Source: Octopus vulgaris (lineage: Eukaryota). From it: DNA of 64,000 nt. Below, piece after piece: positions 16,186-53,856 of this stretch; position 1 is the stretch's first letter, and the number at the start of each line of letters is the position of its first letter. Location of the stretch: contig OX597814.1 of the NCBI GenBank assembly GCA_951406725.2, positions 216,256,001 to 216,320,000 on the forward strand, read 5' to 3'. Below the pieces are notes generated by a model. That model was not told the DNA's origin. It did no database searches and worked only from the letters and a program-made list of their open reading frames with translations. A program made the position numbers and the translations under genes.

Positions 16186-17713
16186 TTGTTCTGGACGTTT
16201 GTAGAAGACGACATCAACTGGAAGGTGTGAAGTTAGATGTTCAACCATTGAGGGAACCATCAGAAGAAAATACCATTTCAAGACAGCAAGTCCATGACTA
16301 TTTACTACCTTCCAAGTTCCATCTGACTTTCTTAAAGAGACATAAAATCAAAGTTAATGACCAATTAAAGAAATGGGCTGAAGTAATATGGAAAGATTCC
16401 AAGTTTAATAAACTGAAATTAAAATATTCCAAAGAAAATTTTGAGGAAATTGAACAATGTTTGGAAGAGTTATTAAATTCCATTACTGTTGAAATCATTG
16501 ATGTTCCAACTGATATTTTTGAAGACATTGTTAGAACATTTAAAAGTGAAGATGATAAGAAATATTTTTATTTTGATATCCAAAATTCCCAAGTTCGTAT
16601 TTTGGGAATTAATAAAAGTAACATAATTGAAATGAAAAAGAGACTTTTGGATAATCTTAGAAGGATATGTGAGTATGATTTAAATATTCATGAAAGACGT
16701 ATTCTATCCGGTCTCAGATTTTTTGAGCAGGCAGAAAGACAAGCTGAAGATCTACAAGTCAGGATTCATGGTAACAAAGTTATTTTTGAAGGCCAGTATT
16801 CCGAATTAGCTACTTGTCTCAAGAATATGTATAAAATTCTTCAGTCAATTGTTAAATCTGAATTGTGTTTGCCTTTAAATACTGGAATGATCATAAATAA
16901 AAAACCAGTGAAAGAATATCTTGATGAAGAACTGAGAAACAAGAAATGTATTGGTTCATGGGAAACGGGTGATGGTGATTCAGTATTACTTTATGCAAGT
17001 GATAAAACACATCTTTCACTTTTGGAAGAAATTATGAAAGAAACTTTTGTCGCCAATACCCTGGATTTTGTAGACAAAATTAAGGATACTCCAAATTATG
17101 GAAAGTGGATGACATTTGTTGAAAGTCTAAAAGAAGAGTTTCCAGATTCCCATTTTATTGGAGAAAATTCTATTGTTGCTGTTGATGCTGTAGTTAATGA
17201 TATAAAAAGCAAATTTGATAACTTTAAGCAATCTTTAACTGATGAATCTTATATATCGATGACTCATGCACATTTCCTCTTTCTTAAAGAGTTCAAAGAA
17301 CAAGAAATCAATGACTTTGGTGCGAAAAATAAAATTAAGAATGTGTGTCTCAAAGATAATAAGTTACACCTGGAAGGAACACAAGAGCAAATTAAGAAAA
17401 TGGAAATATTTATAGAAAAATTTAAGAAAAGATATCAGCTTAAAAGATCGAACATTTAGATCTCAAGAAACCCAGAAAAGTGAAGAAGGAAAAAATTTCT
17501 TATGGGAAAAGCAGAAGAAATCTGAGAGTATAATATCATTAAATTCAGATTTAGAAAGTGAAACAGAAGAAATACTTAATTTTGTGTATAAGAACTGTGA
17601 AATAGTGTTGAGGGAATGTGACATCACGACTCTGGACACAGATGTTATTGTTAATGCTGCAAATGGTAGACTGGAACATATGGGAGGTGTTGCAGCAGCC
17701 ATTGTGCAGAAAG
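16186..17713 (+). CDS. PARP14-like: Exon A, copy 1, of a PARP14/9/15-like macrodomain gene (RRM tail, putative KH-repeat region, macrodomain N-terminus); +1 A at 17416-17420
   Basis: Acceptor cttttcctaattcag|, donor aag|gttggt. Length 1528 nt = 509 codons + 1. Removing one A restores an open frame ending IVLRECDITTLDTDVIVNAANGRLEHMGGVAAAIVQK. The KH/RRM assignment is inferred from PARP14 architecture. Confidence 0.85.
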
Positions 17714-18069
17714 GTTGGTAATACCATTTGTTACAGTTAATGTTTCTTTTTAGATCCAAGTGTGGTTGAGAAGCTAATTTCCTGATCACGTGGTTTCAGG
17801 TTCAATTCCACTCACAGCATTTTAGACAGGTGTCTTCTGTTATAGGTCAGTGGTTGGCCAAAGCCTTGAGAGTGGATTTCGTTGATAGAAACTGAAAGAA
17901 GCTCATCATGTATGTATGCATGAACATGTTAATTTTCTTTTAAAAAACCGTTACTTGTGCAAATGCATTTTCTTTTTATAATTATTATTTTAATCTTATT
18001 TGTGTGCATGTGTGTGTTAATATATTTGAAAAACAACATAACCATTAGATTTATATAGACAATGCTTTC

Positions 18070-21000
18070 AATACAGTTAGCGGTAAGTAAATTAATCTAT
18101 TCTTAAAATTTCATTATTACTAGTGAGAGTATGATATGCTAAGATGTTTATGTGTAGAAGTTAAAATTTGAAAAATTTTATCAATACAAAAATTGCAATG
18201 AGAATATCCAGTTTTATAGGATTTCGCATGTCTTATGATTTCCCACTTTAGGTTATGATTTTTATTATTGTCCTTTAATTCCCAAATAGACTTCTTTAGA
18301 CTAGTATAAGATAATTTACTTCTGTTTATAATTGTGCACTCATGGTTTGCAATATACATTTTTATGTAATTTTCCATAGATCCTATGTAAAAGTAGTTTT
18401 TACCCTCAGCTTCCACTTTACTTCAATATACCACATCTTTTTTATTTGTCAAAATTTTTAAACAAACAGTTATGCTTAAATTTGCAGTGACAATACATAT
18501 TTTTATTTGCTCTTATAGACTTGCAATCAGTATTATCATTGCTCAAAGCTTTAGTATTCTGGTTACAATAGGATACAACATTCATTGTTTCCCTTCACAT
18601 TTTAGAAGATTTCTTTTTTTGTATATTCACTATAATCAGAATTATTTTTGTTGTCAAGTAATGCATCATTACTAAATCTAACTGTACTATTATAGAAATT
18701 AGTTAACTGTTTATTGTTATGTGAAAATATAATCTGGGAAACCTTGGTTGGGACATAATATCCAACACTTCATTTCTTTAGAAAAGTGATTTGTAAATAG
18801 TTTATAAAGAGATTTAACTAAGTTACTCTTAATTTACTTGGCAAATGGAATAATTAACCAAATAATATTATGCTTATTATAAGTTTTATTATAATTATGT
18901 AACTGTTAATCAATTTTCTTTATATATGGGGTATGTCATTTAATAACATTTTTACTTTTATGAATATCGTTAGCGGAATTAAGCAATGAATCAGTTTTTA
19001 ATTTTCTGTCATTATCAATTATATTTAAATTATGCATATCACTGGAGTTTATGTTCGGTGCACAATATTTTATCTTCTGCTTATGTCCTGCCCTCCCAAG
19101 TGCCATGCTGTAAAAGTCCACATTTTAGTTGAAAATCTTCTCATTTGGCCATAAAGTTGAGATTCTTCTAGATACATTGTAAATCAAAGAATTTATGATA
19201 GATCTAGGATGATTACTTCCAATATTTGTATATCTAAGGTTTGTGTTAGATTTATGTAATGGGTTTGTGGTTGCCAGTAACGAGGTTAAGGTTAACATGT
19301 AAAAAGGTTACTGACGCATGCTTATTTTCGATAGTTATGGAGAGTCCAAAGTTTTTTTTAATCTATAAAATTCCTTCTTGTACATTTCTAATTTACTATT
19401 AGAAAAGTTTCTAGGAGTAAAAGTTGTATCATCCCCTTACAAACCTCCCCTAAATTCAGGAAAAATCTCTACTTAAATTAAATAGAATATATATACCTAC
19501 TAGATCAGTGACTTGTGCAAACTCCTCAGATCCCATTGTTATATGAAAGCCATCATTATTGACTTTTTCAATCCAATATTTGTTGTGAAATTCAATAACT
19601 ATTTTCCTGACAGTTAAACTTATGTTAATTTCTTCCATAGTTAGTTTAGAATATTTCTCACGAACAAAAGAGCCTTATTTAATAATATATGGTTAATAGA
19701 AGAATAATAATTATCTGTATGAATTTGTAAAAATTTCTTTCTTTTTTTATTGTCAATTCCATTAAACCAATCAGTTACTTTTTACGTATAGACCAAAGCT
19801 TTAATTTTATTGTGTTCTTAACTGCAGGTATATACCTATCTATAATGGCGTAGTTTAGCTTACCTAAGTCTGATTTACCTGGGCAAATTAATCTTACTTT
19901 AGGGTTGTCATAGAAATTCTCCTTATGGTTTTCTGGCATAATCCTAGGTTTCTTTGGAACAAAAGGTTTAGTCCTATCATCCAATTTGTAATCGGTCATT
20001 ATCTGTATAGATATTAGGTTAAAAGTTCTCAATATATTTTTATTAGCTATTCTGTAACTGCTAGTAATTTCCTTTTTTTAATAGTTCATGATAGTAATAT
20101 ATATTTCAGACTAGCAGTATTGCCCGGCGTTGCTTGGGTTTGCTTCAACCCTTTGGAATTGTAATTTTTGAAAATTAAAAATTTTGCATTGTAAATTTGA
20201 ATGAAGTTGGTTGTGTAGTTCTCAAGTTTTAGGGATTCACACAGACAGATAAGCCCGGTTTCACCCGATTTGTTTGAATGATGTGACTGTGATCGTTTTC
20301 GGTTAGGCATAATCTATAACAGCATTTCTCAACCTCATTTCGGGTCCCCTGTTTCGATTGGAGCCTCCAGCTGTATGAAAATTTCTCCCCAAGCCCCATT
20401 AAAAAACACCTTCAGGGGTTGTGAAGAAAGAATTTGTACATAGTCTGTTTCTGAGAGCTATTGTATTGGACCCCTGTCTAATCATTAAAACATTTATTTA
20501 ATTATGAACATAGAAAGAAATTACACATTAATCCCTATTTTTGTAAGTAGTTGTATCCATAAGAATTTTATTTGCAGATGGCAGAAATTGAAAGAAGATA
20601 TGTGAAATGGACATGTGGGTGTGTGTATATGTGTGTGCTTGTGGCGTGCATGCTTGCACGTATGTATGTGAGAGAGAAAGAGGGTGAGAGAGAGAGAGAG
20701 AGAGATAGAGTGAGTGAAGTGAAAATATCTTCGCAGAAAACAGCCTCAGGAGTTGTGAAGAAAGAATTTGTATGTAGTCTGTTTCTGAGAACTATTCTAT
20801 TAGACCTCTGTCTAATCATGTCTTTTAAGGTATACACACATACATAGAAAATGTGAGGTCATAGTAGAAAATTTTTACGATAGACATTGTTTAAATTTTT
20901 TTTGTCTAATGTAGAAGTTGGTGTTCTATGTATGTGTGTGTATGTGAGTGTGTGTATGTGTGTGTATGTGTGTGTGTGTGTGTGTGAGTGCTTTGTGTTG

Positions 21001-23786: not shown

Positions 23787-24035
23787 GTGGGTTTGGAATT
23801 CAAATTGAATCCAACAAAATTATGAAAGAAAGAAAGAGTGAACTGAAACCTGGAGAAGTAGTGTCAACTAAAGCTGGTAAACTCAAATGCAAGGCTATCA
23901 TTCATGCTGTTGGACCCATTTGGAATAATGGAAGGGATCAGGAAATGGATTACCTTTCAAGAGCTGTTCAAAATTGTTTGGCAGTTCTTGAAGAAAAGTC
24001 TTATACATCAATTGCAATTCCTGCCATCAGTACAG
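23787..24035 (+). CDS. PARP14-like: Exon B, copy 1: macrodomain core
   Basis: ttgcag|GT...ACAG|gtaag, 249 nt, phase 1-1. Encodes GGFGIQIESNKIMKERKSELKPGEVVSTKAGKLKCKAIIHAVGPIW...SIAIPAISTG. Confidence 0.92.
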
Positions 24036-25825: not shown

Positions 25826-28800
25826 ACCCTGGCTGTAACACACGGAACATGTACCTCAGGATGAAAAATAGCAACTAAGATATTTTTAAGATTTCGACTT
25901 GCTCCTCCTTTCATTGTTTTTTGCGAGTATTATCACCATAAAATATTATTTTCTCCTTCTTACTGTTGATGTCTTTCGTCTCAAACGCTAGCTCAAGCAT
26001 TTCCTCACAACATATACCTTTCACTCATAGAAACTTATTCACACGACCACAAAGCATTTCGTCTCAAATCTTGTCTTTCACCCTCATCTATCGGTCATCA
26101 CGCTGTCTATTCAATTCCTACACCATTTGCCTATCTATCGGTCTTTTCTGTCACTTAAATTCCTACCCCATCGTTCCCAGTTCGCGGTGCCACCCGCTCT
26201 CCCTCCCCCTCAACCCGTACCGGAAGTCCTTCTCTCATCTCGTCTTCCTTTAAGGCCTTAAGCCAATACCACCCCTACTATATAAGGTAGTGACCATACG
26301 GTGCAAAACATGATAGTGTAGTTTAAGCAGGTTGAACTTAAGATCATTGCTTTGCTTATGAATTCTGCCAAATGCGAGCTTTCTTTTCAGGTACATGACG
26401 TCACTGCTTCCCGTCCCAGGGTCTCTAGGGCCCATACCTCCCACACCCTCAGGGTTGGCACTCTCAACGTTGGCACACTGAAAGGTAGGTCTGGTGAGAT
26501 TGTTGAGATGCTTGAACGGAGACGTGTTGATATATGTTACATCCAAGAAGTAAGGTGGAGAGGAGGTTCTGCTAGGTTCCTCACAGGCAAAGATCACAGG
26601 TACAAGATCTTCTGGGCAGGAAACACTGACGGGGTTGGAGGCGTGGGTATACTTCTTGCTGAAAAAAGGGTAGATAAGGTAATTGAGGTAATCAGAGTAT
26701 GTGACAGAATACTTAAGATTAAAATAGTGCTTCATCATGGATTAGGAACCATTATATCAGCCTATGCCCCTCAGCCGGGGCCACCCGATGGACAGAAAGA
26801 CCGATTCTATGACGCCTTACTGCAGATTACCTCTTTCACGAACGACAGAGACCTTCTCTTTGTGGCTGGTGATTTCAATGGACATGTTGGAAAACATACT
26901 GGGGGCTTCCATGGTATACATGGAGGCTATGGCTATGGTTCCTGCAACAAGGAGGGAACCAGGCTCCTGGAGTTCTTCAAAGCAAATGATCTCATGGTTT
27001 GCAACACTAACTTCAGGAAACCTACCAGCCACCTAGTCACCTACCGATCGAGTCGACATACCAGCCAAATTGACTACATCCTTGCCAGGAAAAGGGAAAG
27101 ATGGCTGCTTATAAATGCCAAAACCTTCCCAGGCGAAGAATGTACCCCACAACATAGACTGGTAGTTAGTGACTTTAGGATCAGGACTAAGAGGACGACC
27201 AGAAGATGACCAACATGGAGAAGAAGGATCTGGAAGCTTAAAGATCCTGCAAATGGACAGAGATTTAGGGACATATTACTTCAAGCATTTGACAAAGTAG
27301 AAGGGGATATAGCTTCACATGGGGTAGAAGACAACTCGAGGATTCTAAGGGACAACCTGCTGACAGCCACTGACCAGATCTGTGGCTGGTGCAAAGTCCC
27401 CTCTCAACCTAAAATAATGTGGTAGTGGAACAATGTTGTAGACAGGGCTATTAGAGAAAAGAGACAGGCTTGGAAGGACTGGAAAAATGGGGGTAGCAGG
27501 GAATTGTATCAGACTGCCAAAAGAGAAGCTAGGAGACAGGTTTATTTAGCCAGAGGGGAAGCAGATAACAAAAAATTTGCCAATGTTCTGCGCATCGAGG
27601 ACCTAAGACTTGAGATATTTCACGTTGCAAGACAGTGTGTGAGAGAGAATCATGATGTGGTAGGAGAGAAATGTGTTCGCATGGATGATGGTTCACTTGC
27701 GCTAAATGAGGATGCAAAGAGAGGTTGGGAGACGCCACTATGAAAGGTTGCTGAATAAAGAAAATGAATGGGAAAAAGAGAGTCTGCCGAATGTCGACCC
27801 AACAGAGGGACCGGCTATCTGAGTTGACAGTTCCTTGGGAGTTAAGGCAATTAGAAGCATGAAGACAGGGAAAGCCCCCGGCCCATCAGGAATCACTGCA
27901 GAGATGCTCAAAATATCTGGTAGTGTCAGCTATAGCCTAGCCACCCGTATAGTTAACCAGGTGATACACGAAGGAGTCATACCCAATGACTGGTGTAGCA
28001 GCATAATTGTCAACTGCTACAAAGGTAAAGGTGACGCCCTAGATATAAATAATTACAGAGGTATCAAGCTGTTAGGTCAGGTAATGAAGGTTACGGAGAG
28101 GGTCATAGCCCAACTAATTAGAGATGAGATGCAGTTTGGATTCATGCCAGTGAAAAGCACCACTGATGCCATATTCCTGGTAAGACAGCTGCAGGAGAAA
28201 TACCTAGCCAAAGATAAGCCCCTGTACCTGGCTTTTGTTGACATGGAGAAAGCCTTCGACAGGGTCCCCCGATCCCTTATTTGGTGGTCAATGAGGAAAC
28301 TAGGGATAGATGAATGGTTAGTGAGAGCTGTGCAAGCCATGTACAGAGACGCTGCTAGTAAGGTGAGGGTTGGCAACGAATACAGTGAAGCATTCCAGGT
28401 AGAGATAGGGGTCCACCAAGGTTCAGTCCTCAGCCCCCTCCTATTTATCGTAGTCCTCCAGGCAATAACGGAGGAATTCAAGACAGGATGCCCCTGGGAG
28501 CTCCTCTATGCAGATGACCTTGCTCTAATTGCTGAGTCACTATCAGAACTGGAGGAAAAATTTCAGGTGTGGAAGCAAGGATTAGAATCGAAGAGCTTTA
28601 GAGTCAACCTAGCTAAAACCAAAGTCCTAATAAGTAGGAAGGTAGACAAGTCACAAACGCCTTCAGGTAGATGGCCTTGCTCGATCTGTAGGAAAGGCGT
28701 AGGTAGAAACTCTATAAGATGCACCAAGTGTAAGCTATGGACACATAAGAGGTGCAGCAACGTCAAGGGAAGGCTAACTAGGAAGATAGTTTTTGTATGT

Positions 28801-30020
28801 GGCAGATGCTCAGGAGCAATAAACACTGAAAATCTGCAGAAAACAACTTCCGTCACTTTCCAGGGAGAAAAACTAGAAATAGTTGATAGCTTCCGTTACC
28901 TAGGTGACCAAGTCAGTAGCGGGGGCGGGTGTGTTGAAAGTGTAACTGCTAGAGTAAGAATAGCCTGGGCAAATTTCAGAGAGCTCTTACCTCTGCTAGG
29001 GACAAAAGGCCTCTCGCTCAGAGTAAAAGGCAGACTGTATGATGCATGTGTACGAACAGCCAGTGAGTGAAACATGGGCCGTGTCTGTTGAGGATATGCG
29101 TAAGCTCGCAAGAAATGAAGCCAGTATGCTCCGATAGATGTGTAATGTCAGAGTTCATACTCGACAGAGTATAAGTACCTTGAGAGAGATGTTGGACCTA
29201 AGAAGCATCAGTTGTGGTGCGCAAGAGAGACGTTTGTGCTGGTATGGCCATGTGGCGAGAAAGGATGAAGATAGTTGTGTGAAAAAGTGTCACACCCTAG
29301 CTGTTGAGGGAACCTGTGGAAGAGGCAGACCCAGGGAAACCTGGGATGAGGTGGTGAAGCACGACCTTCGAACTTTAGGTCTCACTGAGGAAATGACTAG
29401 AGACCAATACCTTTGGAAGTATGCTGTGCATGAGAAGACCCGGCAGGACAAGTGAGACCATAACCCGGCCTCAGTCCACTTATGCATAACTTTCCTTCTT
29501 GGGACACAATACTCTACTTGTGAAGACCTGTTGAGGCAAGTGAAAATCAAAATCAAAATCAAAGATCAAAATCGATCAACATGAATGGAAATTGTAGGTG
29601 TGATACCAGTGCCGGTGGCACATAAGAGAACCATCCAAACGTGGCCGTTACCAGCGCTGCCCCGACTGGCTTCGGTGCCACATAAAAAGCACCATCCAAT
29701 CATGGCCATTGCCAGCCTCGCCTGGCCTCCATGCCGGTGGCACATAAAGAGCACCATTCAATTGTGGCCGTTTGCCAGCCTCGTCTGGCCTCTGTGCCGG
29801 TGGTACGTAAAGTGCACAATCCGATCGTGGCCGTTTGCCAGCCTCGTCTGGCATGTAAAAGCACCCACTACACTCATGGAGTGGTTGGCGTTAGGAAGGG
29901 CATCCAGCCGTAGAAACAGACTGGGCCTGGTGCAGCCTTCTGGCTTCCCAGACCCCAGTTGCACCGTCCAACCCATGCCAGCATGGAAAGCGGACGCTAA
30001 ACGATGATGATGATGATGAT
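25826..30020 (+). mobile_element. Near full-length RTE-clade LINE (APE + RT) with several stops and frameshifts, in intron B1-C1
   Basis: APE motifs TLNVGTL, QEVRW, SAYAPQ, GDFNGHVG and SQIDY; RT ORF 27835-29070; 3' UTR with (GAT)n tail. The 5' UTR is shared with 56613-57190. Confidence 0.93.
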
Positions 30021-36315: not shown

Positions 36316-36689
36316 GTGTGTGTGTGTGTGTGTGCGTGTGTGTACTTGCATATATCATGGCCTCAGGCCAATGAAGCCTTGCGAGTGGATTTTGCACATG
36401 GAAACTGAAAGAAGACTGTCGTATAGATATGTATATTTGTGTGTATGTCTGTGTTTGTACCACCACCATTGCTTGAAAATTATGTTGCTGTGTTCAGGTC
36501 CCTGTAACTTAGCAGTTCGGCAAAAGACAGCAACAGAATAAGTACTATGCTTAGAAAGAATAAATCCTTGGGTCTGTTTGTTTGAATAAAGGTGGTGCTA
36601 CAGCATGGCCATTCACATGACTGAAACAAGTAAAACAGCAAAAACTATGCCATTTTAATCCCGAGCAATACCAAGTATCGCTGCTTGTA

Positions 36690-37640
36690 TGTTATAAAAA
36701 AACATTCCTTCAGCTTGTGACAGTGGATAGCCCTTGAGCTGGATTTTATTCTTGTCAAAATTCTTAGTCTTTGGGCAGAAACTAAATCCTAGCACCAAGA
36801 CAAGGACATCGTCTGGTGAAAGGTTTAGTTTAGATAAATTTATTCACTCGTATGATGGATTTTCTTGGGAGAGTGCTTTTCAGAGTTTCACTTTCATTAG
36901 ATCTGTGACTACTTTTTGGGTTTTGCTCAAATTCTTCACTTAAAATATGGAACCTATTCGGTGATAAAAATGGTTTAGAATGTTCATGTGAGGATCTCAT
37001 AACTTTTAGTCATCTTTCTAGGAGTAAACCATTTCTGGGTGGGTGATAGAAAATGAATGACTTCTGTGGTTTACGCAGGCAATTGAAAAGCCTTTCCTTT
37101 CGGGAAAGGAACAAATTTATTAAGAATATAAGATAAATATTAACCACTAGCTTTAACTCCAAGAATTCTTAACACTGGACTTTCTGAACATCATATCTTG
37201 AAAAACAGTCGCGAGAGAGTTAAGACCTGTTCATTGTGCAACAACATGAGTCAAGTGAATTCCATCAGGAATCATAACAGAAATGTTATGATTTATTCAG
37301 AAGGTGGGACATGTAGAGATCCAAATTTGGTGTACGTGGCAGAATGCATGAAACACAACTTAATTTATGTTGGTTGCACAACAGAACAATTAAACAAAAG
37401 ATTTAATGGGCACAGATATGATGTCAAGCATGATAAAAATTCAACAGAACTTGCTCAACATTTTGCATCAAATGGCTGCAATTTTCAAAAAAAAATTTGA
37501 AAGTGCATATTCTCAGAAAATATTCTGAATCTGCTACACTTTCAGTCCTCAAAATGCACAGGGACAGATATGTTTTGAGAATTATCAACATCTACACCAT
37601 GAAGGGATGAATAAAATGACAGAGGAATTTCATAATATTC
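36690..37640. mobile_element. Penelope-like fragments: N-terminal piece on the minus strand, GIY-YIG piece on the plus strand
   Basis: ORF 37198-37500 has CSLC...NLVYVAEC...IYVGCT...RFNGHRYD. The minus strand at ~36800 reads VLVLGFSFC. Confidence 0.7.
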
Positions 37641-38979
37641 ACACAAAACTGACTATATATTCTTCTCCTTTTTCTTTTTTCTCTTGTTGTTTTTCTTTCT
37701 TTTAGCCAGTTATACAATTGAAAATTGAAGACTGATGACATCATTTTGTCAAACTGGGAATGCAGGATCTCCTTGTTCCAACTTTTGAATTTGAATTTCT
37801 ACAATTTTTAAATTTCTATTCATCACGTTTTCATTAGAACTTGACAAAGAGAAGCAAACAGTTGAAATATTGATCAATCTAATAAAATCATCATCATTGT
37901 TTGACATCCATGTTCCATGCTAGAATGGTTGGGACGGTTTGACAGGAGCTGGCCAGGCACTTCTGTGTCTGTTTTGGCAGGATTTTTACAGCCTAATGCC
38001 CTTCCTAATATCAACCACTCAGCAGAGTGGACTTAGTGATTTGTACGTGGCACAAGCACAGGTGAGGTTAATTTTGGCAAGGTTTTTAAATCTGGGTGCC
38101 CTTCTGCACACCAACAACTTTACAGCATGGACTGGGTGCTTTTAAGCGGCACCTGCACTGACACGGACACTAGGTACTTGCAAGACAAAAAATACTTTCA
38201 AGAGGGGTGAGGGAATTGTAGGATATGATCTTGTGTCAGATGATGAAAGGTCAGAGAGAGAGAGAGAGAGCAAGAAAGAGAAATAGGGGTCTTGCTGTAA
38301 TGGAAGTACAAGGTTACTCCACCTGAGAAAGAGAGATTAGGGATGAGGAAAGAAACAGGCACATTACTGCAAAGGAAATACATGGTTACGCAACTTGAGA
38401 GAAATGAAGGAGAATGCGAGAGTGTGGGAGATAGCAGGATAGATATGGAGTAAAATGTCAGGGATACTCATAAGGAATGGGGATCAGAATATAGATGGGA
38501 TGGTTGAGTAAAGGAAGAGAGAGATACAGATAGTGGCAAGTGCCAGGGTATACCCTTGAGGTTCGACGCATTCTTCATTTTGTCTGATAATAATAATAAT
38601 AGTGTTGACCGGCCCAATGCTTGGGATGAAGGTGAATGAACTGCAAATCAGTACTTAATTCTGGAGCAATATTTTGATAAAGATACTGAACCAACTGATG
38701 CTCACGTGTCTCAAGAATCATGATCATGGTCCCCAATACACAGAGATACAAAGGGAACAGGCCCAACATATGTGTAATAATGTCTCTGCAGTCTTGGTTG
38801 ACAATCTTACTAGAGATGGTGTCTTGATAAAAAATACCAGTTGGTGGCTAATTTTAGAACACAAACCTCAATATTGAATGAAAATGCTTAATACAAGTGT
38901 ATCAAATAATGTGTCAATGAGTCTGGAACCAACAGTCCACTGATGTTGAGCAGTGTAGGATCAGTCATTACCCAGAGAC

Positions 38980-40460
38980 TGCTTGTGCACGAAATCAAAT
39001 TGAATGCTGGATCAGGAATGAACCCAACAGAAGGGGATTCTGACAATGAATGAGAGCCAAATGGAATGAGATAGGACTCTTCGAAACAAGTGAGCAATTG
39101 TTAGCCGACCAGGCAAGAGCAATTAGAGCAAAAAGGTGGTTAACGGACATGGAAATTGAAGAGATAAAAAGAAAAGTAGAAAGGAGAAATAATCCTTCAC
39201 CAACAGATAACGTGCCCAGTGAGAACAGAGAAATAAATAAGGGCAGTGAAGATGTAGAGCAAAGTGTAAATGTAAATGCATTCTCCACAAATTAAGCAGA
39301 AGTAATAGGAAGAGCTGTATCCCAATAATACGGTGATGCCCAACAAGACGTAGAGAGGATATATTTGAGAAGACCAGGATCAAGACCCTTCCCCCCATAA
39401 TCTGAGGTACATTGACCAATGCAAGATCAAGGTTGAAACCATAAAGATAGATTCAGTTCTTGGGCTGTTCCATACGAGAAATATCACTGAAACTCACAAG
39501 ATTATTTGGGGTGCAGCAACTGTTGCTGCAGATAGAATTGGATAGAAAAGGAAAGAACAAATAGAACGTAAAGAACCGTTCTGGTGTAGAGGAATTTGTA
39601 AGGAACAAAGACATTTAGGACAAGTTGATAGATTGAGAAGAGGGGAATTGCAGAATGAAAGTATAAGAATGATGCTGGAAAGGACAGATGGAATAAGAGA
39701 TAAATTGTATGATGAGATATTGGAAGAAATGAAACAAAGAGTTGGAGCAATCAAAGCAAAACAGGAAAGATATGTCAATAGAAGAAAATAATTCAAGCAG
39801 AACAGATTGTTAGAAGCATATTAGAAGTAACTGTTTCAGGAACTGGATGGGCAATTACACATAACAATGATACCAGAAGCAGAGGTAAGTAGGGCATTTT
39901 GGAGAGAGATCTGGTACCAATCTGCAGATGATAATAATGAAGCAGAGTGGCTGCATGAAATCCAAGATAGGTTAAGAAATATAGAAGGCAAAAAAGACAT
40001 AAAAATAACTACAGAAATGATAAAAAAAAGCAGTTAAGAAAATTCCCAAATTGGAAGAGCCCAGGACTGGATGGGGTCCCAGATTATTGGATGAAGAAGC
40101 TGAGAGGGATCCATCAAAGGAGAGTGCAACAGCTAGATGAGTGCTTGCAGGAAGGTGCAGTACCCAGATGGAAGACAAAGGGAAAGACATTGTTATGTGC
40201 CAAGGATCCTGGAAAGGGAAATGTTGCATCCAACTTTAGAACAATAACATGCTTTCTGCTCACATGGAAACTAATGTCAGGTAATTTGGCTGCTGAACTG
40301 TACAGATACTTGGGAAAAAGTAGGTTGCTACCCATTAAACAAAAAGGGTACAGTAAAAGGAGCCAGGATACGAAGGATCAGCTCTTGATTGCTAATCTAA
40401 TTATCAGGAAATGCAAGAGAAGACATACAAACTCAGCATGGCATGGGTCGACGATCGCAA
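38980..40460 (+). mobile_element. Decayed R4/Dong-like non-LTR fragment (unit 2 copy)
   Basis: Near-identical to 13960-15385; ORF 40091 contains NFRTITC...WKL...QKG...KDQLLI. Confidence 0.7.
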
Positions 40461-40614: not shown

Positions 40615-41030
40615 GCGGGCATGTCGGATGAAATGGCTAGCGGTATTTCATCCATCTTCACACTCAATGTTCAAATTCTGACAGGGATGACTATGTCTTT
40701 CATCCTCTTGCATTTGCAATGTGATCGATGTAATCTATTTAGCCACTCTCCTGAAATTGCTGGCCTTGTGCTAAAATTTGAAAACAAAATTTCAGTGATG
40801 TTTATGGTCAATAAAATAAGTACCTGTTGATCACTGGGGTTGATGTAATTGACTTAGCCACTCTCCTGAAATTGCAGGCCTTGTGCCAAAATTTGAAACC
40901 AAAATTCCAGTGATGTTTATGGTCAATAAAATAAGTACCAGTTGAGCACTGGGGTTGATGTAATTGACTTAGCCACTCTCCTGAAATTGCTGGCCTTGTG
41001 CCAAAATTTGAAACCAACATTCCATGATGT
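40615..41030 (+). repeat. SINE remnant (B-box-like gttcaaattc) followed by ~2.7 x 115-bp units
   Basis: Full units start at 40809 and 40924, with a partial unit from ~40724; same unit as 15388-15957. Confidence 0.85.
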
Positions 41031-41236
41031 TTCTAGTATTTATTATAATTAATAGAGATAGTGTCTACTTAGTGTCTGTGAAATGTTGGTTATATTTTTC
41101 TGTTTGCTAATGCATTATACTAATAACATTACTTTGTCTTCAAATACTTTTCTGTCTTTACCCACTAAACTCCCCATCTCACCCCTACTCCCTCACCAAC
41201 GAAATGATTTTGTCTTTTTACCTTTTCCTAATTCAG

Positions 41237-42773
41237 TTGTTCTGGACGTTTGTAGAAGACGACATCAACTGGAAGGTGTGAAGTCAGATGTTCAACCATT
41301 CTGGGAACCATCTGAAGAAAATACCATTTCAAGACAGCAAGTCCATGACTATTTACTACCTTCCAAGTTCCATCTGACTTTCTTAAAGAAACATAAAATC
41401 ATAGTTAATGACCAATTAAAGAAATGGGCTGAAGTAATATGGAAAGATTCCAAGTTTAATAAACTGAAATTAAGTTATTCTGAAGGAAATTTGAAGCAAA
41501 TTGAACAATGTTTGGAAGAGTTACTAAATTCCATTACTGTTGAAATCATTGATGTTCCAACCAATATTTTTGAAGATGTTGCTAGAACATTGAAAAGTGA
41601 AGATGATGAGATGTATTTTTATTTTGATATCCAATATCATAAAGTTCATATTTTTGGATTTGATAAAAGTAATGTAATTAAAATGAAAAACAGACTTTTG
41701 GATAATCTTAGAACGATATATGAGGATGATTTAAGTATTCATGGAAGGCGTATTCTATCTGGTCTCAGATTTTTTGAGCAGGCAGAAAGACAATCTGAAG
41801 ATCTACAAGTCAGGATTCATGGTAACAAAGTTATTTTTGAAGGCCAGTATTCCGAATTAGCTACTTGTCTCAAGAATATGTATAAAATTCTTCAGTCAAT
41901 TGTTAAATCTGAATTGTGTTTGCCTTTAAATACTGGAATGATCATAAATAAAAAAACCAGTGAAAGAATATCTTGATGAAGAACTGAGAAACAAGAAATG
42001 TATTGGTTCATGGGAAACGGGTGATGGTGATTCAGTATTACTTTATGCAAGTGATAAAACACATCTTTCACTTTTGGAAGAAATTATGAAAGAAACTTTT
42101 GTTGCCAACACACTGGATTTTGTAGACAAAATTAAGGATACTCCACATTATGGAAAGTGGCTGACATTTGTTGAAAGTCTAAAAGAAGAGTTTCCAGATT
42201 CCCATTTTATTGGAGAAAATTCTCTTGTTGCTGTTGATGCTGTAGTTAATGATATAAAAAGCAAAATTGATAACTTTAAGCAATCTTTAACTGATGAATC
42301 TTATATATCGATGACTCATGCACATTTCCTCTTTCTTAAAGAGTTCAAAGAACAAGAAATCAATGACTTTGGTGCAAAAAATAAAATTAAGAATGTGTGT
42401 CTCAAAGATAATAAGTTACACCTGAAAGGAACACGAGAGCAAATTAGGAAAAAGGAAATATTTATAGAAAATTTAAGAAAGGATACCAGATCCCAAGAAG
42501 AAAACTTTGAAATGTTTAGATTTCAAAAAACCCAGAAAAGTGAAGAAGGAAAGAGTTTCTTGAGTGAAATGCAGAAGGAATATGAGAGTATAATATCTTT
42601 AAATTCAGATTTAGAAAGTGAAACAGAAGAAATACTTAATTTTGTGTATAAGAACTGTGAAATAGTGTTGAGGGAAGGTGACATCACGACTCTGGACACA
42701 GATGCTATTGTTAATGCTACAAATGGCAGACTGAATCTTATGGAAGGAGTTGCAGCAGCCATTGTGCAGAAAG
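41237..42773 (+). CDS. PARP14-like: Exon A, copy 2, of the PARP14-like gene; +1 A at 41950-41956
   Basis: Same acceptor as copy 1, donor aag|gttagt. Length 1537 nt = 512 codons + 1. ORFs 41083 and 41960 join if one A is removed; the exon ends IVLREGDITTLDTDAIVNATNGRLNLMEGVAAAIVQK. Confidence 0.85.
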
Positions 42774-44344
42774 GTTAGTAATACCATTTTTTATAGTTAA
42801 TGTTTCTTTTTAGATCCAAGTGTGGTTGAGAAGCTAACTTCCTGATCACGTGGTTTCAGGTTCAATTCCACTCACAGCATTTTGGACAAGTGTCTTCTGT
42901 TATAGGTCAGTGGTTGGCCAAAGCCTTGGGAGTGGATTTCGTTGATAGAAACTGAAAGAAGCTCATCATTTATACATACATATATACTTTTTTATAAAAG
43001 GTGTATACAGCTCATTGGAGCACTTCTATTTCCAGTCCGTTGTATATCTTGAGTGTTGTTTGTCACTCAAGATATAACTTTATATTTTGTAATACATACA
43101 TATATATATGTGTGTGTGTGTGTGAGGGTGAGTAGCCAGGTGTTGACAGCACACGATGGTTGTAAATGAACATCACCATCACACAAGTGATGTTGTGTCA
43201 TTTCCAGTCCTCCATGAAAAACATGTCTGACCGTGGAGAAATATTCCCTCATTTGGAAACATGTGGCACTTGGCTACAGGAAGGACACCCAGCCATGGAC
43301 ACTAAATTATGGTGCACAGACACACACACACACACATATACATACACATGTACGTACCAACACGCATGAACACACACACACAGTATACATGCACACAATA
43401 GCTTTATATACATCCACTTGCTTGCACACACAGTTACATCGCATAGCCTTATACACACACACATAAACCAAAAGCATGGACATACATACACACATGCATA
43501 GATACTTATACACAGTAGTCTCATACACATGAGTGCTCACATACACGTGCCAAGTTCATAGTTGTCTCCATGTCACTCATACCTCAAGTCAGCTCTCATA
43601 GATGTCTCCCTTGGTTGCCAGAGCCACTGACACCTTCAGCAACCTCTTCCTCCTCCAATCATTTCAGCTTCTAGTGACACTCTCACACGGGTTTTTTTCT
43701 TTTCTCTCTCTCTTCTTCTATTCTTTCTGTCAAAGAGTAGGCTCAAAATGTTAAACACTTCCTAATTTCACTAAGCATAAAGTTGATACACTTCTGCTGT
43801 GGAGGTCAGGTCTTCTTGAGAACAGCAAGGCACCAGATATCTCAGTCCTTTGTCATCTCATCCACAAGGTTCACCGTTCGGAGGTTCTCCTTCAGAACTT
43901 CGTCCTCTGTTTTACTGGGTCTCCCTCTTACACAAGTTCCATCCACTTTGAATGTACGGCACTTCTTTGTTGAGCTGTCAGCAACCCTTCACATCACATG
44001 ACCAAACCATACTGTCTTCTCTCACAGACTGCATCCAATTCTTCTTCTGCCAAACTTCTCTCTCAATACACTAACAGTCTGTTGCATATATGTGTTTCTT
44101 TATTGGCCACACAAGGCTGAATACAGAAGGGACAAAATACAAAGTAGAGCTTTTCTTTTTGGAAGGAAGAAGAGAATAAACGAAAAAAAAGAAGTGGGTC
44201 GAATTCCAATCAAAAGGGTTTGTGAAGAAAAAAATTATATACATATACGTGTGTGTGTGTGTGTATACAAGTAAAATAGAATAAAAATGTAATATATATA
44301 TTGATATATATAACAAAATATATTTATAATAGAAAATAATAATA

Positions 44345-47113
44345 ATCATCGTTTAAGATCCGCATTCCATGCTAGCATGGGTTGGACAATTTGACTGAGG
44401 ACTGGCAAACCAAATGGCTGCACCAGGCTCCAATCTTCATCTTGCAGAGGTTCTACAGCTGGAACCCTTCCTAACGCCAACCGCTCTGAGAGTGTAGTGG
44501 GTGCTTTTATATGCCACCGACATGGAACTCAGTTAGATTCAGGTGGTACTGGCAACAGCCACGCTCAAATGGTGTTTGTTACGTGCCAATCCAGTGGCAC
44601 TCGCAACGACCTCACTCAAATGTTTTTTCACATGCCACCAGCACAAGTGCCACTAAGACGACACTGGTAACAATCAATGGTGCTTTTTATGTGCCACTGC
44701 CATGGAAGCCAGTTAGCTGCTCTGGCAATGATCACTCTCGGATGGTGCTCATAGTGCTCCACTAGCATAGATGCCAGTCATCAAATCTGATTTCGATTTC
44801 ACTTGCCTCAACAGGTCTTTGCAAGCAGAGTTTAGTGTCCGAAGAAGGAAAGGTACACATAAGTGGGCTGGTTACACCCCTGGCATAGGACGCAAAGTTA
44901 TGGTCTCATTTGGCTTGCTAGGTCTTCTCAAGCACACCATATTTCCAAAAATCTCAGTCACCAGTCATTGCCTCGGTGATGCCTAATGTTCGAAGGTCGT
45001 GCTTCACCACTTCGAACCAGGTCTTCCTGGGTCTACCTCTTCCACAGGTTCCCTCAACTGCTAGAGTGTGGCACTTTTTTCACACTGCTGTCCTCATCCA
45101 TTCTCGCCACATGACTATACCAGTACTGTCATCTCTCTTGCACCCCAATCTGATGCTTCTTAGGTCCAACTTTTTTCTCAAGGTACTTACACTCTGTCGA
45201 GTATGCACACTGACATTACACATTCAGCGGATCATACTGGCTTTATTCCTTGTGAGCCTACGCATATCGTGAGCAGTCATAGCCTATGTTTCACTGCCAA
45301 GTAGCATGGCTGTTGATACACATGCGTCATACAATCTACCTTTTACTCACCAGCAGAGGTAAGAGTTCTCTGAACTTTGCCCAGGCTATTCTTATTCTAG
45401 CAGCTACACTTTCAGTGCACCCCCACCCCCCAGCTTCTGAATTGGTCACCTAGGTAATGGAAGCTATCAACTACTTCTAGTTTTTCTCCCTGGAATGTGG
45501 CAGAAGTTCTTCTCTGCACATTTTCAGTGTTTATTGCTCCTGAGCATCTGCCACATACAAAAACTATCTTCCCAGTTAGCCTTCTTTCGATATTGTTGCA
45601 CCTTTTATGTGTCCATAGCTTATGCTGGGTACATCTTATAGAGTTTCTACCTACGCCATTTCTACAGATCGAGCAGGGCCATCTACCTGAAGGGATTTGT
45701 GGTTTGCCTGCCTCCCTACTTATTAGGACGTTGGTTTTAGCTAGGTTGACTGAGGCCCGTCGATTCTAATCCTTGTTTCCACACATGAAACTTCTCCTCA
45801 AATTCTGATACTGACTCAGCAATTAAAGCAAGGTCGTCAGCATAGAGGATCTCCCAGAGGCATCGTGCCTTGAATTTCTCTGTTATTTCCTGGAGGACTA
45901 TGATAAATAGGAGAGCCTGAGGACTAAACCTTGGTGGACCCCTACCTCCACCCAGAATCCTTCACTGTACTCATTGCCAACCCTCACCTTACTGACAGCG
46001 TCCTTGTACATGGCTTGCACAACTCTCACTAAGCATTCATTTATCCCTAGGTTACTCATTGACCACCAGATAAGGTGTCGGGGGACCCTGTCAAAGGCTT
46101 TCTCAACAAAAGCCAGGTACAGAGGTTTATCTTTGGCTAGGTATTTCTTCTGCAGCTGTCTTACCAGAAATATAGCATCAGTGGTGCTTTTCCCTGGCAT
46201 GAACCCAAACTGCATCTCATCTAAACTGATTTTCTCTCTAATTAGTTGGGCTATTACCCTCTCCATGACCTTCATTACCTGATCGAACAGCTTGATACCT
46301 CTGTAATTATTTGTGTCTAAAGCGTCACCTTTACCTTTGTAGCAGTTGACTATGGTACTGCAACACTAGTAATTGGGTATGACTCCTTTGTGTATCACCT
46401 AGGTAACTATAAGTGTGACTAGGCCATAGCCGACACTGCCAGATATTTTGAGCATCTCTGCAGTGATTCCTGATGGGCCAGTGGCTTTCCCGGTCTTCAT
46501 ACTCTTAATTGCTTTATCTACCAAGGTACTGTCAACTCGGATAGCTGGTCGCTCTATGAGGTCAACATTCAGCAGACCCTCTTTCTCCCATTCATTTTCT
46601 TTATTCAGCAACCTTTCATTGTGGCATCTACAAATCTCTCTCTTTGCAGCCTCATTTAGTGCAAGTGAACCATCATCCATGCGAACACATTTCTCTCCTA
46701 CATCACGATTCTCTCTCACACACTGTCTTGCAACATGAAATACCTCAAGTCTTTGATCCTCACGGCGCAGAACATTGGCAAATTTTTCCTTATCTGCTTC
46801 CCTTCTGACTAAATAAACCTGCCTCCTAGCTTCCCTTCTGGGAGTCTGATACACTTCCCTGCTACCACCGTTCTTCCAGTCTTTCCAAGCCTGTTTCTTT
46901 TCTCTAATAGCCCTGTCAACAACATTGTTCCACCACCATGTTATTTTGGGTCAAGAGGGGACTTTGCAACATCCACAGATCTGGTCAGTGGCCCTCAGCA
47001 ATTTGTCCTGTAGAAACCTCCAGTTGTCTTCTACAACGTGTGGGGCTATATCCCCTTCTATTTTGTCAAAGGCTTTGAGTAATATGTCTCAAAATCTCTG
47101 TCCATTCGCAAAC
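44345..47113 (-). mobile_element. RTE-clade LINE, 5'-truncated and degenerate, antisense in intron A2-B2
   Basis: Minus ORFs 46399-46854 and 45898-46275 match the RT of 2300-5329; the 3' UTR ends near 44345. Confidence 0.9.
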
Positions 47114-47666: not shown

Positions 47667-47915
47667 GTGGGTTTGGAATTCAAGCTGAATGTAACAGAAT
47701 TATGAAAGAAAGAAAGAGTGAACTGACACCTGGAGAAGTAGTGTCAACTAAAGCTGGTAAACTCAAATGCAAGGCTATCCTTCATGTTGTTGGACCTGTT
47801 TGGAATGATGGACAAACTGAGGAAATTTTTCACCTTTCAAGAGCTGTTCGAAATTGTTTGGCAGGTCTTGAAGAAAAGTCTTATACATCAATTGCAATTC
47901 CTGCCATCAGTACAG
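47667..47915 (+). CDS. PARP14-like: Exon B, copy 2: macrodomain core
   Basis: ttgcag|GT...ACAG|gtaag, 249 nt. Encodes GGFGIQAECNRIMKERKSELTPGEVVSTKAGKLKCKAILHVVGPVW...SIAIPAISTG. Confidence 0.92.
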
Positions 47916-49780: not shown

Positions 49781-50070
49781 ACAATCACACCTTAAGCTTC
49801 AGACACTGGGATAAAAAGAAAGCAACCAAATAATCCAGTTATATATGGCCCTTAAAAGAAAAAGGTGTCAGTTAGAAAATCCACTGGAAGATCTTGGCCA
49901 AATGTAAGCCTTACACTAACGGCAGTGGAAAGTGCAGTCTTTGCGATATGGAAAGATGGCTTGTCTGGAAAAGTTCTTTAGACCCTACTACATGTCTAAA
50001 TTCAAGAACTGAACTTTTTGGGTCATGTCCAAATATAGCGAAACATTTGTTATGTTTTTGCCCCCCGTCT
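49781..50070 (+). mobile_element. 3' GIY-YIG fragment of the same PLE family as 2-670
   Basis: AKCKPYTNGSGKCSLCDMERWLVWKSSLDPTTCLNSRTELFGSCP is nearly identical to ORF 233-670. Confidence 0.85.
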
Positions 50071-50263
50071 CCCCAGATCACAGATAAATCCTGTTTTTTA
50101 TATTATGTCCACATGCAAGCGTTTCATGTCTTGCCATTTCTTATATTTTTCTTATATATATTTTATTGCTTTATATATTTTTTCTGTATATTATTTTTCA
50201 CTCTTTATATTGGAATAATATGTGTGTGTATGCATATTTTATATGTATTTATGTTAACATAAG

Positions 50264-50300
<37 letters not shown>

Positions 50301-50334
50301 TTGTATGTATATGTACACGCGTGTGTGAGTATGT

Positions 50335-51440
50335 ATATGGGAACGCGAATGGGCCCCAACAATGTGAACCTATTTGTTGGAACTTTGAGGACCAAATATT
50401 CTCAAGATGCACTGGTCCCACTCCCAAACTATATGGTCGATATTTTGATGACTGTATTGGTGCAACTTCACTCTACCACGAATACCTAGACGCCTTACTC
50501 TCTTTTGTCAAATCTTCCCATCTTCCTCCCACTTCTCCTGCACTATTTCCATGGTCAGCATTCATCACACCACTCTCAGCACCTCCATCCAATATAAACA
50601 TAGACTCACACTCATACCTCAACTTCTCCTCCTCCCACCCTACACACACCAAGATCTCCATCCCCTATTCTCAATTCCTTCATCTACACAGGTTCTGCAG
50701 TGACGACCATGAGATTGAGACTGAGTCTCAACTCATGGCTTCCCACTTCTTCCTACGTAGATATCCGCTCACCACTATCCACACTGCCCTTGCCAGACCA
50801 CGTTTGGTGGACTGTGCTTCTGCTCTCTCCCCCGCCGTCTCCTGTTTACCCTCACCTACCACCCCACCACTCTATCCAACACACCATTCTACGAGCCTTC
50901 TGGCGACTCCAGTCTGACCCCTACCCTTTGCACATCTTCCTTAATGGACCTCTCCCCTCCTTCAAAAGAACCCACAACCTACGAGACCTCTTGGTCGACA
51001 GCCCTAACTCAACCTTCCAACCCAGCTCATTCTCCTGCTCCTTCCCATACTGCTGCACTTGCCCTTACCTCTCCAACATCCCCCTCACAGGCATCCATCA
51101 TCAACCCTAATATATCACTGACTCCTTCACCTGCACTTTTAGCAACATCATCTACTGCATATCCTTCCCTCTTTGTCCTTCTCTGTACATCAGTCAAATG
51201 GGAAGCCGCTTGGCTGACCAGTTCACGAAACACCTCCGAGACATCAGACTTTGCAACAACACTCCAGTCTCATGCCATTTGCGCTCTACCGGTCATTCTT
51301 TACAACACCTGTCTGTGTTCAGAATGTCCTTGCACAGGGGCCATCCAGGCTCCCGTTTTCCTGTGAACAGGGATTAACCTTCTCTCTTCGCTCCTTTGCA
51401 CCACATGGGCTCAACTCTCTTTCCCTCTTCATGAAACCCT
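50335..51440 (+). mobile_element. Decayed C-rich Penelope-like element of a different family (RT to GIY-YIG)
   Basis: Across frames: MGTRMGP..NLFVG, YGRYFDD, SHSYLNFSSSHP, SIPYSQF, FKRTHNLRDLLV, CCTCPY and IIYCI...LYISQMG. Confidence 0.8.
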
Positions 51441-52760
51441 CCTTTCTTCCTCTCACATCTATTTCCTCCCACGCACCTCTCCTCTTGCTCTGACACCTAC
51501 TTCCTCTCTTCTCTCCAACCCACCTTCTCCCTTCGCTGTAACCCCCACCCCTACACAATCCAACCCCACCCTCCCTGTTCATCCAATCCCATCCCACTCC
51601 CACATACCCCCTCAACACCACATCATACCACCCTGCACACACTAGCACTAACCACTTCCCAGAACCCACACCATCATCCATACATCTACACATGCACACA
51701 CATGTGTCAAGGTCACCAACCCTCATCCACATGCACATACACATTCTCACACGTATGAGCACATTCGTTTTGGGATCACAACTACTTTATTATTTCCCAT
51801 TCTTCCTAGCTTTCCTGTGTGACTCCTCTGTCTAGCATTTGCCATGATAGATCGCTAGTCAACATTCTTTATTTTCTCTTCCTGTTTATTTCTGTGTTTC
51901 TTTCTGCGCGTAGGCTCAAAACGTTAAAGACTTTCTCACTTCCCGAGTGTTAAACTAATACATCTGCTTGTTGTTTACAGACCTGTCTTCATCTTTTATT
52001 TTTTGTAAATTCTGACTATATATATATGTAACGGATTTAGTTTGGTTGATATTGAAATTGTCAGAGTCAGCAGTTGCGACGATGATTATTTGTTGTTATG
52101 ACAGCATACTGTAGGTTGTGAAAGATAGACACTGCATGAAGTTTAGAGGAAATGTTTATTTACCGTTACGTTAAAATAACTTGCCTCGACGGGCATGTTG
52201 TGATAGATCCAAAATCATGCAAAGTAAAGTTTGTCTATGTGTCCTCTTCATTGTTTAGTAGTAGTAATTACAGAGAGATAGAATGACATTGTAAGGGACA
52301 GAATTAGAGCTAGAGAGAATTGTAGGGTGTTGTCTCACAGTTGCTTTCTCCCTCTGACCAACGTTGAATCGTCACCAACCGTGACTAACTCCGTTAAGTC
52401 GTCATGACTGTGATGAACTCACTTTTGCTTGGGGTATGCTTGCTTTATAAAGATCCAGAAGGATAGATATATCATTGAGAACAACAGATTCAGTTGGTGG
52501 TCTTGTTATCTCTATTCTAGCTTTTGCTGAAGTAGAAGAGGTTAGAAAGGGTCAAGCGGTGAAGACATTATTTCGGCCTAGCTAAAGGCATCTGAAAAAT
52601 GTAAAACTGCTGTCAGAGAAACACCATTGTTCCATCGTGGGAAGAGTTCTGTAATAGTGTTAATTTAAATTTGGCTATGGTGGATCAAATCTACTTCATG
52701 CATGCAAGATTCACTACATATATATATACACAAATGTGTTCGTGTGTGTGTGCACAACTG

Positions 52761-53296: not shown

Positions 53297-53349
<53 letters not shown>

Positions 53350-53676
53350 CATCATGATTATTATTATTTTACTGAACAAACAAGAAAGAAAAGAAATGTG
53401 TTCAACAAGAGAGAAACAAAGTTCTTCTTAAATACCATTGTATATTAATGCGGGCTAAAGACCACCACCTCCACCCCACCTCGGTCATGAAATGCCATGG
53501 TATTGCACCTAGAAATTTGCCCCCTGTCTATTAAAGAATCTTCTAAATGATGGAATTGTATTGTTTCTTGGCATTGCAGCTGATAAATTACTGAAATTAT
53601 ATCACAGGTTAATTATATATATTTTGAGTAAGAACAATTGTTGGATTAAATATGTTGTATACTTTATTTATTACAG

Positions 53677-53856
53677 GTACTTTTGGTATACCCATAGAAA
53701 AGGGAACCGAATGTATAGTAACAACTATAAAGATTTATCTTGATGCTTACTCAAATTCTAAAATAAAACATATTTGTTTGATTGATGAACAGAAGGATGT
53801 AATCAGAGCTTTTAGGCATCATCTAGAAACGGTGTTTGGAATCAGTAAAAGCAGAG
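53677..53856 (+). CDS. PARP14-like: Exon C, copy 2: macrodomain C-terminus
   Basis: ttattacag|GT...AGAG|gtagga, 180 nt. Completes ISTG-TFGIP...IKHICLID...AFRHHLETVF. Confidence 0.9.

Follow-up and report, generated by a model that had tools for sequence, protein, structure and literature searches.

The question raised by this locus is whether two macrodomains encoded in tandem have divided the roles of ADP-ribose reader and eraser between them. The locus lies in a 64,000-nt stretch of Octopus vulgaris DNA (contig OX597814.1, positions 216,256,001 to 216,320,000 of the forward strand; hereafter the window, in whose own coordinates all positions are given), where a first-pass annotation had described reciprocal alteration of the ADP-ribose pocket motifs in the two domains and proposed a functional split. 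We favour, with slightly better than even confidence, a different reading of the same sequence: that the window belongs to an immune-type, PARP14-like gene with tandem Macro1 modules, each of which would have been stripped of eraser function by a different route.

Tandem Macro1 modules of a PARP14-like locus

A six-frame motif search of the window recovered all the pocket motifs listed in the first-pass annotation at the places given there (CDIT, NAANGRLEHMGGV, HAVGP, ISTG and GICG in copy 1; GDIT, NATNGRLNLMEGV, HVVGP, ISTG and GTFG in copy 2; positions in Table 1), on the plus strand. The duplicated tandem unit is a three-exon phase-1 module (exons A, B and C) consisting of a linker and Macrodomain 1 (Macro1), repeated at a spacing of ~25 kb. 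In self-BLAST, homology between the units has an abrupt onset (13955–15389 versus 38972–40406, 97.9%) and collinear blocks extend to 36284–36887 versus 63422–64000. Exons A, B and C of both copies have AG/GT ends and every junction is in phase 1, so that module-wise splicing or skipping would remain in frame, a point in favour of the first-pass annotation. The Pfam Macro match in exon A1 (model positions 1–21, E 0.0066) is below the cut-off; the long linker in exon A would be KH-like by its place in PARP14, and a sub-threshold KH match was found in exon A2 (PF24641, E 0.028) and none in A1.

By sequence and modelled fold, both window domains are assigned to the Macro1 class (PARP14/PARP9). Against human PARP14 Macro1, copy 2 reached 108.7 bits, compared with 59.8 bits for 3q71, which we take to be PARP14 Macro2. 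Structural modelling, proposed earlier as a check, predicted both domains to be folded, with predicted local distance difference test (pLDDT) values of 96.9 and 97.2 and template modelling (TM) scores of 0.91–0.96 against the PARP14 Macro1 entries 3q6z, 3vfq and 4d86; AlphaFold confidence of this kind speaks to fold compatibility, not to pocket function. Loop 2 reads PAISTG in both copies, which is the Macro1 form P-x-x-S-x-G and not the reader form P-x-x-G-x-G.

The closest relatives of the window domains are Octopus PARP14-like proteins. Between them, the O. vulgaris models P0011 and P0001, whose accessions are consecutive, tile the window; they contain the spliced motifs of copy 1 and copy 2 and are 100% identical to the window over the macrodomain-coding exon pieces. 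P0011 comprises N-terminal RRM exons (PF23085 and PF23222, 5' of exon A1 and upstream of the window), A1–B1–C1 and the first part of A2, where the model ends; P0001 starts in the 3' part of A2 and continues through B2, C2, a complete third module, Macro2-type remnants and a shortened ART end. PF00644 (ART) was found in the paralogs P0002, P0007 and P0014, and P0001 has an incomplete ART start beyond the window. Thus, the two modules described earlier are part of a set of at least three, the third having the same pocket as module 2 (NATN/NLMEG/GTFG); module 3, like the sister locus considered below, is known from public protein models only. A search with 36 Octopus-set proteins revealed no Macro2-type or other family exon between C1 and A2, and the off-exon matches were intron pieces taken into gene models and nothing else. 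With no other family exon in between, the simplest reading is that the modules are internal repeats of a single, long PARP14-like gene with at least three linker + Macro1 modules, the first two of which lie in the window. These would have arisen by intronic tandem duplication of the symmetric phase-1 three-exon block, in a gene whose presumed order runs from upstream RRM exons through linker + Macro1, repeated three times or more, to Macro2-type remnants and, downstream, a WWE-like/ART end.

The PARP14-like family is expanded in O. vulgaris: the 18 models retrieved, many of them fragments, fall into two accession clusters and lie on a single 225.7-Mb contig; one of the models, P0177, has two Macro1 modules. 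Macro1 copies of the gene are 81–95% identical. Among the paralogs, P0003 is similar to module 1 (exons B and C at 95%, with a piece of the B1–C1 intron included at 96%) and P0002 to module 2 (exon B at 94%, the model starting in a piece of a long interspersed nuclear element (LINE) that resembles 32688–33080). Both have NAAN/HMGG and a loop-2 aromatic, the full P0002 pocket being GDIT/NAAN/HMGG/GTFG and other paralogs having GIFG, which suggests, from protein models, that a sister locus shares the two-module arrangement but has its pockets intact. Paralog contigs with spliced ends (upstream exon to A, and A to B) were present in two putative RNA runs (X13 and X17, whose type is a guess), so the PARP14-like family appears to be transcribed, as shown for these paralogs. 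Our literature searches found no description of an octopus PARP14 expansion or of cephalopod PARP14 macrodomains.

Pocket motifs of the module copies

The reference set for the pocket residues was 91 Macro1-type domains. It was drawn from the best domain of each of 144 proteins not named Octopus, 53 of these domains being set aside for want of P-x-x-S-x-G. Conserved in this set are the loop-2 aromatic (85/91), the loop-1 His (81/91), the residue equivalent to G41 of Af1521 (79/91) and Ala or Ser at NAxN (89/91). Of the two hydrolase motifs, N(6x)GG[VLI] and G[VIA][YF]G, copies 1 and 2 each depart from at least one.

In copy 1, loop 1 (NGRLEHMGGV) conforms to N(6x)GG[VLI] and includes the coronavirus-type His. 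This His had also been put down as a MacroD feature, which does not hold for the MacroD-type YmdB, where the residue is Gly. Loop 2 (GICG) deviates from G[VIA][YF]G in that the aromatic is gone, and only one of the 91 reference domains has Cys at this site. Copy 1 had been considered a kept eraser, a view at odds with the conservation of the aromatic and with its being needed for hydrolysis by human PARP14: the F926A mutant is reported to keep ADP-ribose binding with strongly reduced hydrolysis (PMC10470015), and Sindbis Y114A to bind better with 42% of the activity left (PMC7018654). Given the behaviour of these mutants, loss of the aromatic would make copy 1 a weakened eraser or a binder, and by this analogy it should bind ADP-ribose and hydrolyse it weakly. 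The change of GDI to CDI, to which importance had been attached, is probably minor, since the site is tolerant (Gly in 56 of 91 domains, Asp in 15, Ala in 13) and the active PARP9 Macro1 has Asp there. Both copy 1 Cys codons are one base away from the canonical codon.

Loop 1 of copies 2 and 3 (NGRLNLMEGV) departs from N(6x)GG[VLI]. Their loop 2 (GTFG) keeps the aromatic and has a Thr, shared by one of the 91 domains, that falls outside G[VIA][YF]G; Thr at this site is accepted by PMC10221186 and not by the motif in PMC10470015. Copy 2 lacks the coronavirus-type His, a residue that helps to position the distal ribose in coronavirus-type domains (PMC7729036), and has no alphavirus Cys. The alternative catalytic dyad xDx(4)H is missing as well, as it is from Octopus Macro1 generally. 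A literature search for the His mutant H45A found no paper. Alignment (H-M-G-G-V with H39-G40-G41-G42-V43) bears out the Af1521 numbering used previously, in which the copy 2 Glu lies at G41, one before G42; Glu occurs at this site in none of the 91 domains, and Octopus sinensis P0021/P0022 have Asp. The earlier point was that the Glu sits next to the site of the G42E mutation, which blocks binding. G42, equivalent to G32 of chikungunya virus (CHIKV; PMC8319303), is nonetheless intact, and at the site equivalent to the Glu CHIKV has an acid, D31. In that domain, which is active and binds, D31 is described as touching the distal ribose (PMC7822648), so the Glu need not block binding. By sequence and analogy, copies 2 and 3 should be non-catalytic ADP-ribose binders.

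Three of the four loop-1 changes in copies 2 and 3 (A>T, E>N, H>L) are toward Macro2/3 reader residues. In loop-1 profiles from 416 domains (106 Macro1-type and 255 Macro2/3-type, with 22 unclassified and 33 gapped left out), the Thr, Asn and Leu of copy 2 were found in 117, 68 and 196 of the Macro2/3-type domains, versus 5, 7 and 7 of the Macro1-type. The shift to the Macro2/3 profile amounts to 5.5 bits, matched by 0.14–0.31% of 20,000 random non-synonymous draws per setting for a post hoc p of about 0.002–0.003, and leaves copy 2 loop 1 between the classes at −3.4 bits (Macro1 median +18.9, 5th percentile +2.5; Macro2/3 median −18.5, 95th percentile −4.4). Gene conversion of the loop from a Macro2 exon was ruled out, as the neighbouring A, G, R and M are still Macro1-like. 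The tree pairs module 2 with module 3 (100/98) and puts the pair beside P0002 (100/99) with its canonical loop 1, pointing to a recent loop-1 change of single origin; module 1 has no firm place in it. Copies 1 and 2 may act like readers, yet both group with Macro1 and by descent are not Macro2/3 members.

What stands of the proposed eraser/reader split is that the pockets differ at conserved sites and that copy 2 loop 1 is reader-like; the eraser half does not fit a copy 1 devoid of the loop-2 aromatic. The pairing therefore seems less likely, both window copies looking de-catalysed. Nor are the alterations reciprocal in any marked sense. The motifs hold no significant excess of the differences between the two copies (8/29 positions versus 28/148 elsewhere, p = 0.32), although four of the motif differences fall on well-conserved positions. 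Moreover, non-canonical loop 1 recurs in 7/26 Octopus instances (3/15 in O. vulgaris; isoforms inflate the totals), and with two of at least three modules in view the apparent reciprocity is mostly a sampling effect. Independent loop-1 lesions were seen in the Octopus paralogs P0021/P0022, P0010, P0005 and P0009 (HIDG, HWCG, His-to-Tyr and a three-residue deletion). An A1+C2 splice chimera, earlier put forward as the most canonical combination, would keep the CDI Cys and the rare Thr; P0002 is already canonical and P0014 also more so than the chimera.

Frameshifts, selection and rival explanations

Each exon A has a length of a multiple of three plus one base, owing to one extra A in an A run, and both frameshifts lie upstream of the macrodomain motifs. 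Contigs of 4 of the 24 listed sequencing runs (X1, X2, X13 and X17) were compared with exon A1; such contigs show presence, not absence. At 17416, X1 has the shorter run in its entire depth (12.5 + 30.4 of 42.9). One X1 contig with the shorter run matches copy 1 at 5/5 sites separating copies 1 and 2, and the peptide stretch of this copy-1-type contig was in 0/18 other paralog segments. The shorter run accounts for part of the depth in X2 (8.8 of 27.2, and one loose-end contig) and X13 (72.7 of 267.9), and X17 yielded nothing at this site. An inserted base at the copy 1 site matching the A7 of copy 2 was listed in none of the four runs, where bridging contigs may be paralogs. We consider assembly consensus error the probable cause of both frameshifts. 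The ~110-nt intron with which P0011 appears to bridge the copy 1 frameshift was rejected: its joint was not in the two putative RNA runs and the sole listed joint came from a DNA-type run.

In the reading that we favour, both frameshifts would be consensus errors, the gene open and all modules folded; copy 1 would have lost the loop-2 aromatic, keeping ADP-ribose binding and weak hydrolysis, while copies 2 and 3 would have lost the His and gained Thr, Asn and Leu as in reader Macro2/3 loops. The outcome would be a PARP14 paralog that has no effective eraser of its own and has additional reader-like domains, most sister paralogs keeping canonical erasers. A more specific version, which we hold only tentatively and think rather doubtful, is a recent eraser-to-reader conversion in which, following intragenic duplication, selection brought modules 2 and 3 by convergence to the reader loop of Macro2/3 and module 1 lost, or is polymorphic for, the aromatic, yielding a multivalent, eraser-free PARP14. 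Were this true, such a protein would retain its own ADP-ribose marks, and the locus would be a few-step replay of the ancient divergence of Macro1 from Macro2/3, with the canonical P0002 domain about a dozen residues away.

Several points weigh against these proposals. The sequenced animal could truly carry these frameshifts as alleles. At 17617, the first base of the CDI codon, the contigs read Gly in the whole depth of X1 (118.6/118.6), X13 and X17 and in 56.7/65.6 of X2, so that the CDI Cys is in none of the depth of the former three and in at most 8.9 of 65.6 in X2; for the NLMEG and GICG alleles the support is the assembly itself. The reader-convergence test was post hoc and took copy 1 codons as the assumed ancestor; selection for an intact fold alone could also produce the reader-ward bias in loop 1. 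The Glu shifts away from the Macro2/3 profile (−2.9 bits, 7/255), and loop 2 of copies 2 and 3 stays Macro1-like. Copy 2 keeps the Asn, last Gly, Thr and Phe, and may count as active by the four-residue rule given in PMC10221186 (Asn/Ser, Gly, a hydrophobic residue including Thr, and an aromatic). Finally, the ratio of non-synonymous to synonymous rates (dN/dS) leaves room for relaxed selection, being 1.00 between copies 1 and 2 over 634 codons, with a linker value of 0.73, a macrodomain value of 1.78 and no block significantly above 1 (macrodomain p = 0.21).

That dN/dS value is also what would be expected if the modules were redundant or pseudogenising members of a birth-and-death array, with frameshifts real in the haplotype and pocket changes without meaning. 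Such neutral decay, which we judge fairly unlikely, would account as well for one frameshift per exon A, for the unenriched motif changes, and for the split public models, the shortened ART end of P0001 and the many fragments among the 18 O. vulgaris models. It sits poorly, however, with the absence of any in-frame stop or splice-site loss among the 117 substitutions in aligned codons of copies 1 and 2, and with both breaks being a single extra A in an A run that a copy-1-specific X1 contig does not have. In addition, the macrodomain has evolved faster than the linker at amino-acid sites (proportion of non-synonymous differences, pN, 0.100 versus 0.047, p = 3e-4), not at synonymous ones, where the corresponding pS is equal in both; alignable non-coding flanks gave 0.033, biased low because they were picked for alignability. 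The higher macrodomain pN fits diversifying or relaxed selection, and PARP14 macrodomains are reported to evolve fast (PMC13224862). The bias of the loop-1 changes to residues known from homologous domains likewise counts against pure decay, whether selection was for reader function or for fold.

A selected reciprocal split, with copy 1 an eraser, copy 2 a reader or decoy and A1+C2 shuffling rebuilding the best enzyme, strikes us as improbable. It draws on the intact loop 1 of copy 1 and the reader-like loop 1 of copy 2, on the phase-1 junctions that predict in-frame skipping, and on the activity remaining in the Sindbis mutant, by which copy 1 may retain some; the strong effect of F926A on PARP14 Macro1 hydrolysis, the repetition of the copy 2 pocket in the third module and the sister locus P0003/P0002, where the duplication needed no split, speak against it. 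We think it a shade more improbable still that consensus errors or private alleles explain the Cys substitutions and perhaps further copy-specific letters, copy 1 normally being a canonical eraser and only copies 2 and 3 altered. The same exons seem to hold homopolymer errors, each Cys codon is one base off the canonical one and X1, the run with the copy-1-specific contig, reads Gly throughout at 17617, all of which would agree with this; the part of the X2 depth that is not G there, however, is about the depth of one contig and most simply a T allele. If it were true, the gene at population level would have one eraser and two reader-like copies, near the split first proposed.

Feature layout and comparison with known systems

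Table 1. Coordinates of duplication units, exons and A runs in the window.
Feature	Position	Strand	Description
Duplication unit 1	13955–38971	+	~25 kb; left edge is the onset of homology to unit 2 (self-BLAST)
Exon A1	16186–17713	+	1528 nt, phase 1-1; linker and start of Macro1 copy 1; CDIT 17617, NAANGRLEHMGGV 17653
A5 run, exon A1	17416–17420	+	one base more than copy 2; stop 17457–17459 in upstream frame
Exon B1	23787–24035	+	249 nt; Macro1 core, HAVGP (23903) and PAIST (ISTG 24026); Pfam Macro E 2e-20; AG/GT ends
Exon C1	30856–31035	+	180 nt; loop 2 GICG (30855; TGT Cys is the aromatic site), C-terminal helices; 100% to P0011
Duplication unit 2	38972–64000	+	continues past window end
Exon A2	41237–42773	+	1537 nt; linker, then the first part of Macro1 copy 2; GDIT 42677, NATNGRLNLMEGV 42713
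A7 run, exon A2	41950–41956	+	one base more than copy 1; stop 41974–41976
Exon B2	47667–47915	+	249 nt; Macro1 core, HVVGP (47783) and PAIST (ISTG 47906); Pfam Macro E 8e-20
Exon C2	53677–53856	+	180 nt; loop 2 GTFG (53676), C-terminal helices; 100% to P0001

The exon A donors differ, being GTTGGT in copy 1 (17714–17719), presumably farther from the usual donor consensus, and GTTAGT in copy 2 (42774–42779); the exon A donor is the end point of several public paralog models. Shortly 5' of exon A lies a 115-bp tandem repeat (15388–15957, 5.0 copies, in unit 1; 40727–41032, 2.7 copies, in unit 2). Just upstream of the onset of unit homology, 11264–13608 on the plus strand contains frameshifted open reading frames (ORFs) with a weak RVT_1 match (E 0.003) and an Asn-rich linker, which we take to be a Penelope-like retroelement. 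Copies or fragments of a LINE-type element with endonuclease and reverse transcriptase ORFs occur at 2257–5330, 25826–30020, 44336–47110 and 54557–58236 (75–86% identity), some ending in a 63-bp repeat, and their insertion places differ between the units. A GIY-YIG fragment (37144–37500, plus strand; E 2e-4, just under the cut-off) is close to the unit 1 end, a 1.4-kb AT microsatellite (8558–9965) is the source of long low-complexity ORFs, and GC skew is strongly negative (−0.45) across 2 kb (50001–52000) of the B2–C2 intron.

Much of this is an expected case: an expanded invertebrate PARP14 family, symmetric-exon module duplication and Macro1 catalytic loss as in several mammals (PMC10221186, PMC10499325). 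The division of tandem macrodomains into readers and erasers and recurrent activity loss are already established. New here are a Macro1 module in at least three copies and, from sequence comparison, the apparent shift of modules 2 and 3 to a reader loop. The locus shows the octopus PARP14 family diversifying via exon-module amplification. Which residues convert an eraser to a reader, and whether PARP14 Macro1 loss is adaptive, are described as open in PMC10221186; P0002 and modules 2/3, ~90% identical with four loop-1 differences, are a natural pair that offers a compact test set.

In its NAAN-x(4)-H-x-G-G loop, copy 1 is like Af1521 and coronavirus Mac1. Just before its last loop-1 Gly, copy 2 has an acid that matches D31 of CHIKV nsP3; in lacking the His, the xDx(4)H dyad and the Cys, copy 2 is unlike the coronavirus, MacroD and alphavirus types as these are given in PMC7729036. 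Human PARP14 is described as having an eraser in Macro1 and readers in Macro2/3 (PMC10499325, PMC10470015). The octopus copies, 36–38% identical to it and of Macro1 class with the TM scores given above, would share with it a reader/eraser division among tandem macrodomains, and Octopus paralogs have its order RRM, linker, Macro1, Macro2-type and ART. Unlike in human PARP14, Macro1 and the linker exon upstream of it occur at least three times over at the octopus locus, and no copy has both hydrolase motifs; tandem Macro1-like domains were found in 4/144 other proteins. P0112, P0135, P0037 and P0099 have two or three Macro1-like domains each, P0112 with three identical motif sets.

PARP14 Macro1 hydrolase activity is reported to have been lost in the cow, the polar bear and the little brown bat (PMC10221186). 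As there, catalytic residues of loop 1 or loop 2 are lost in octopus and a reader is proposed to remain; in the account of PMC10221186, however, the mammalian losses concern single-copy domains and were assayed, whereas those in octopus are predicted and affect young intragenic duplicates with canonical paralogs in the same genome. The local PARP14-like expansion in O. vulgaris is similar to the clustered PARP14 paralogs of lancelet and sponge described in PMC13224862, with the difference that those are reported as whole-gene clusters, whereas the octopus locus contains intragenic Macro1 repeats.

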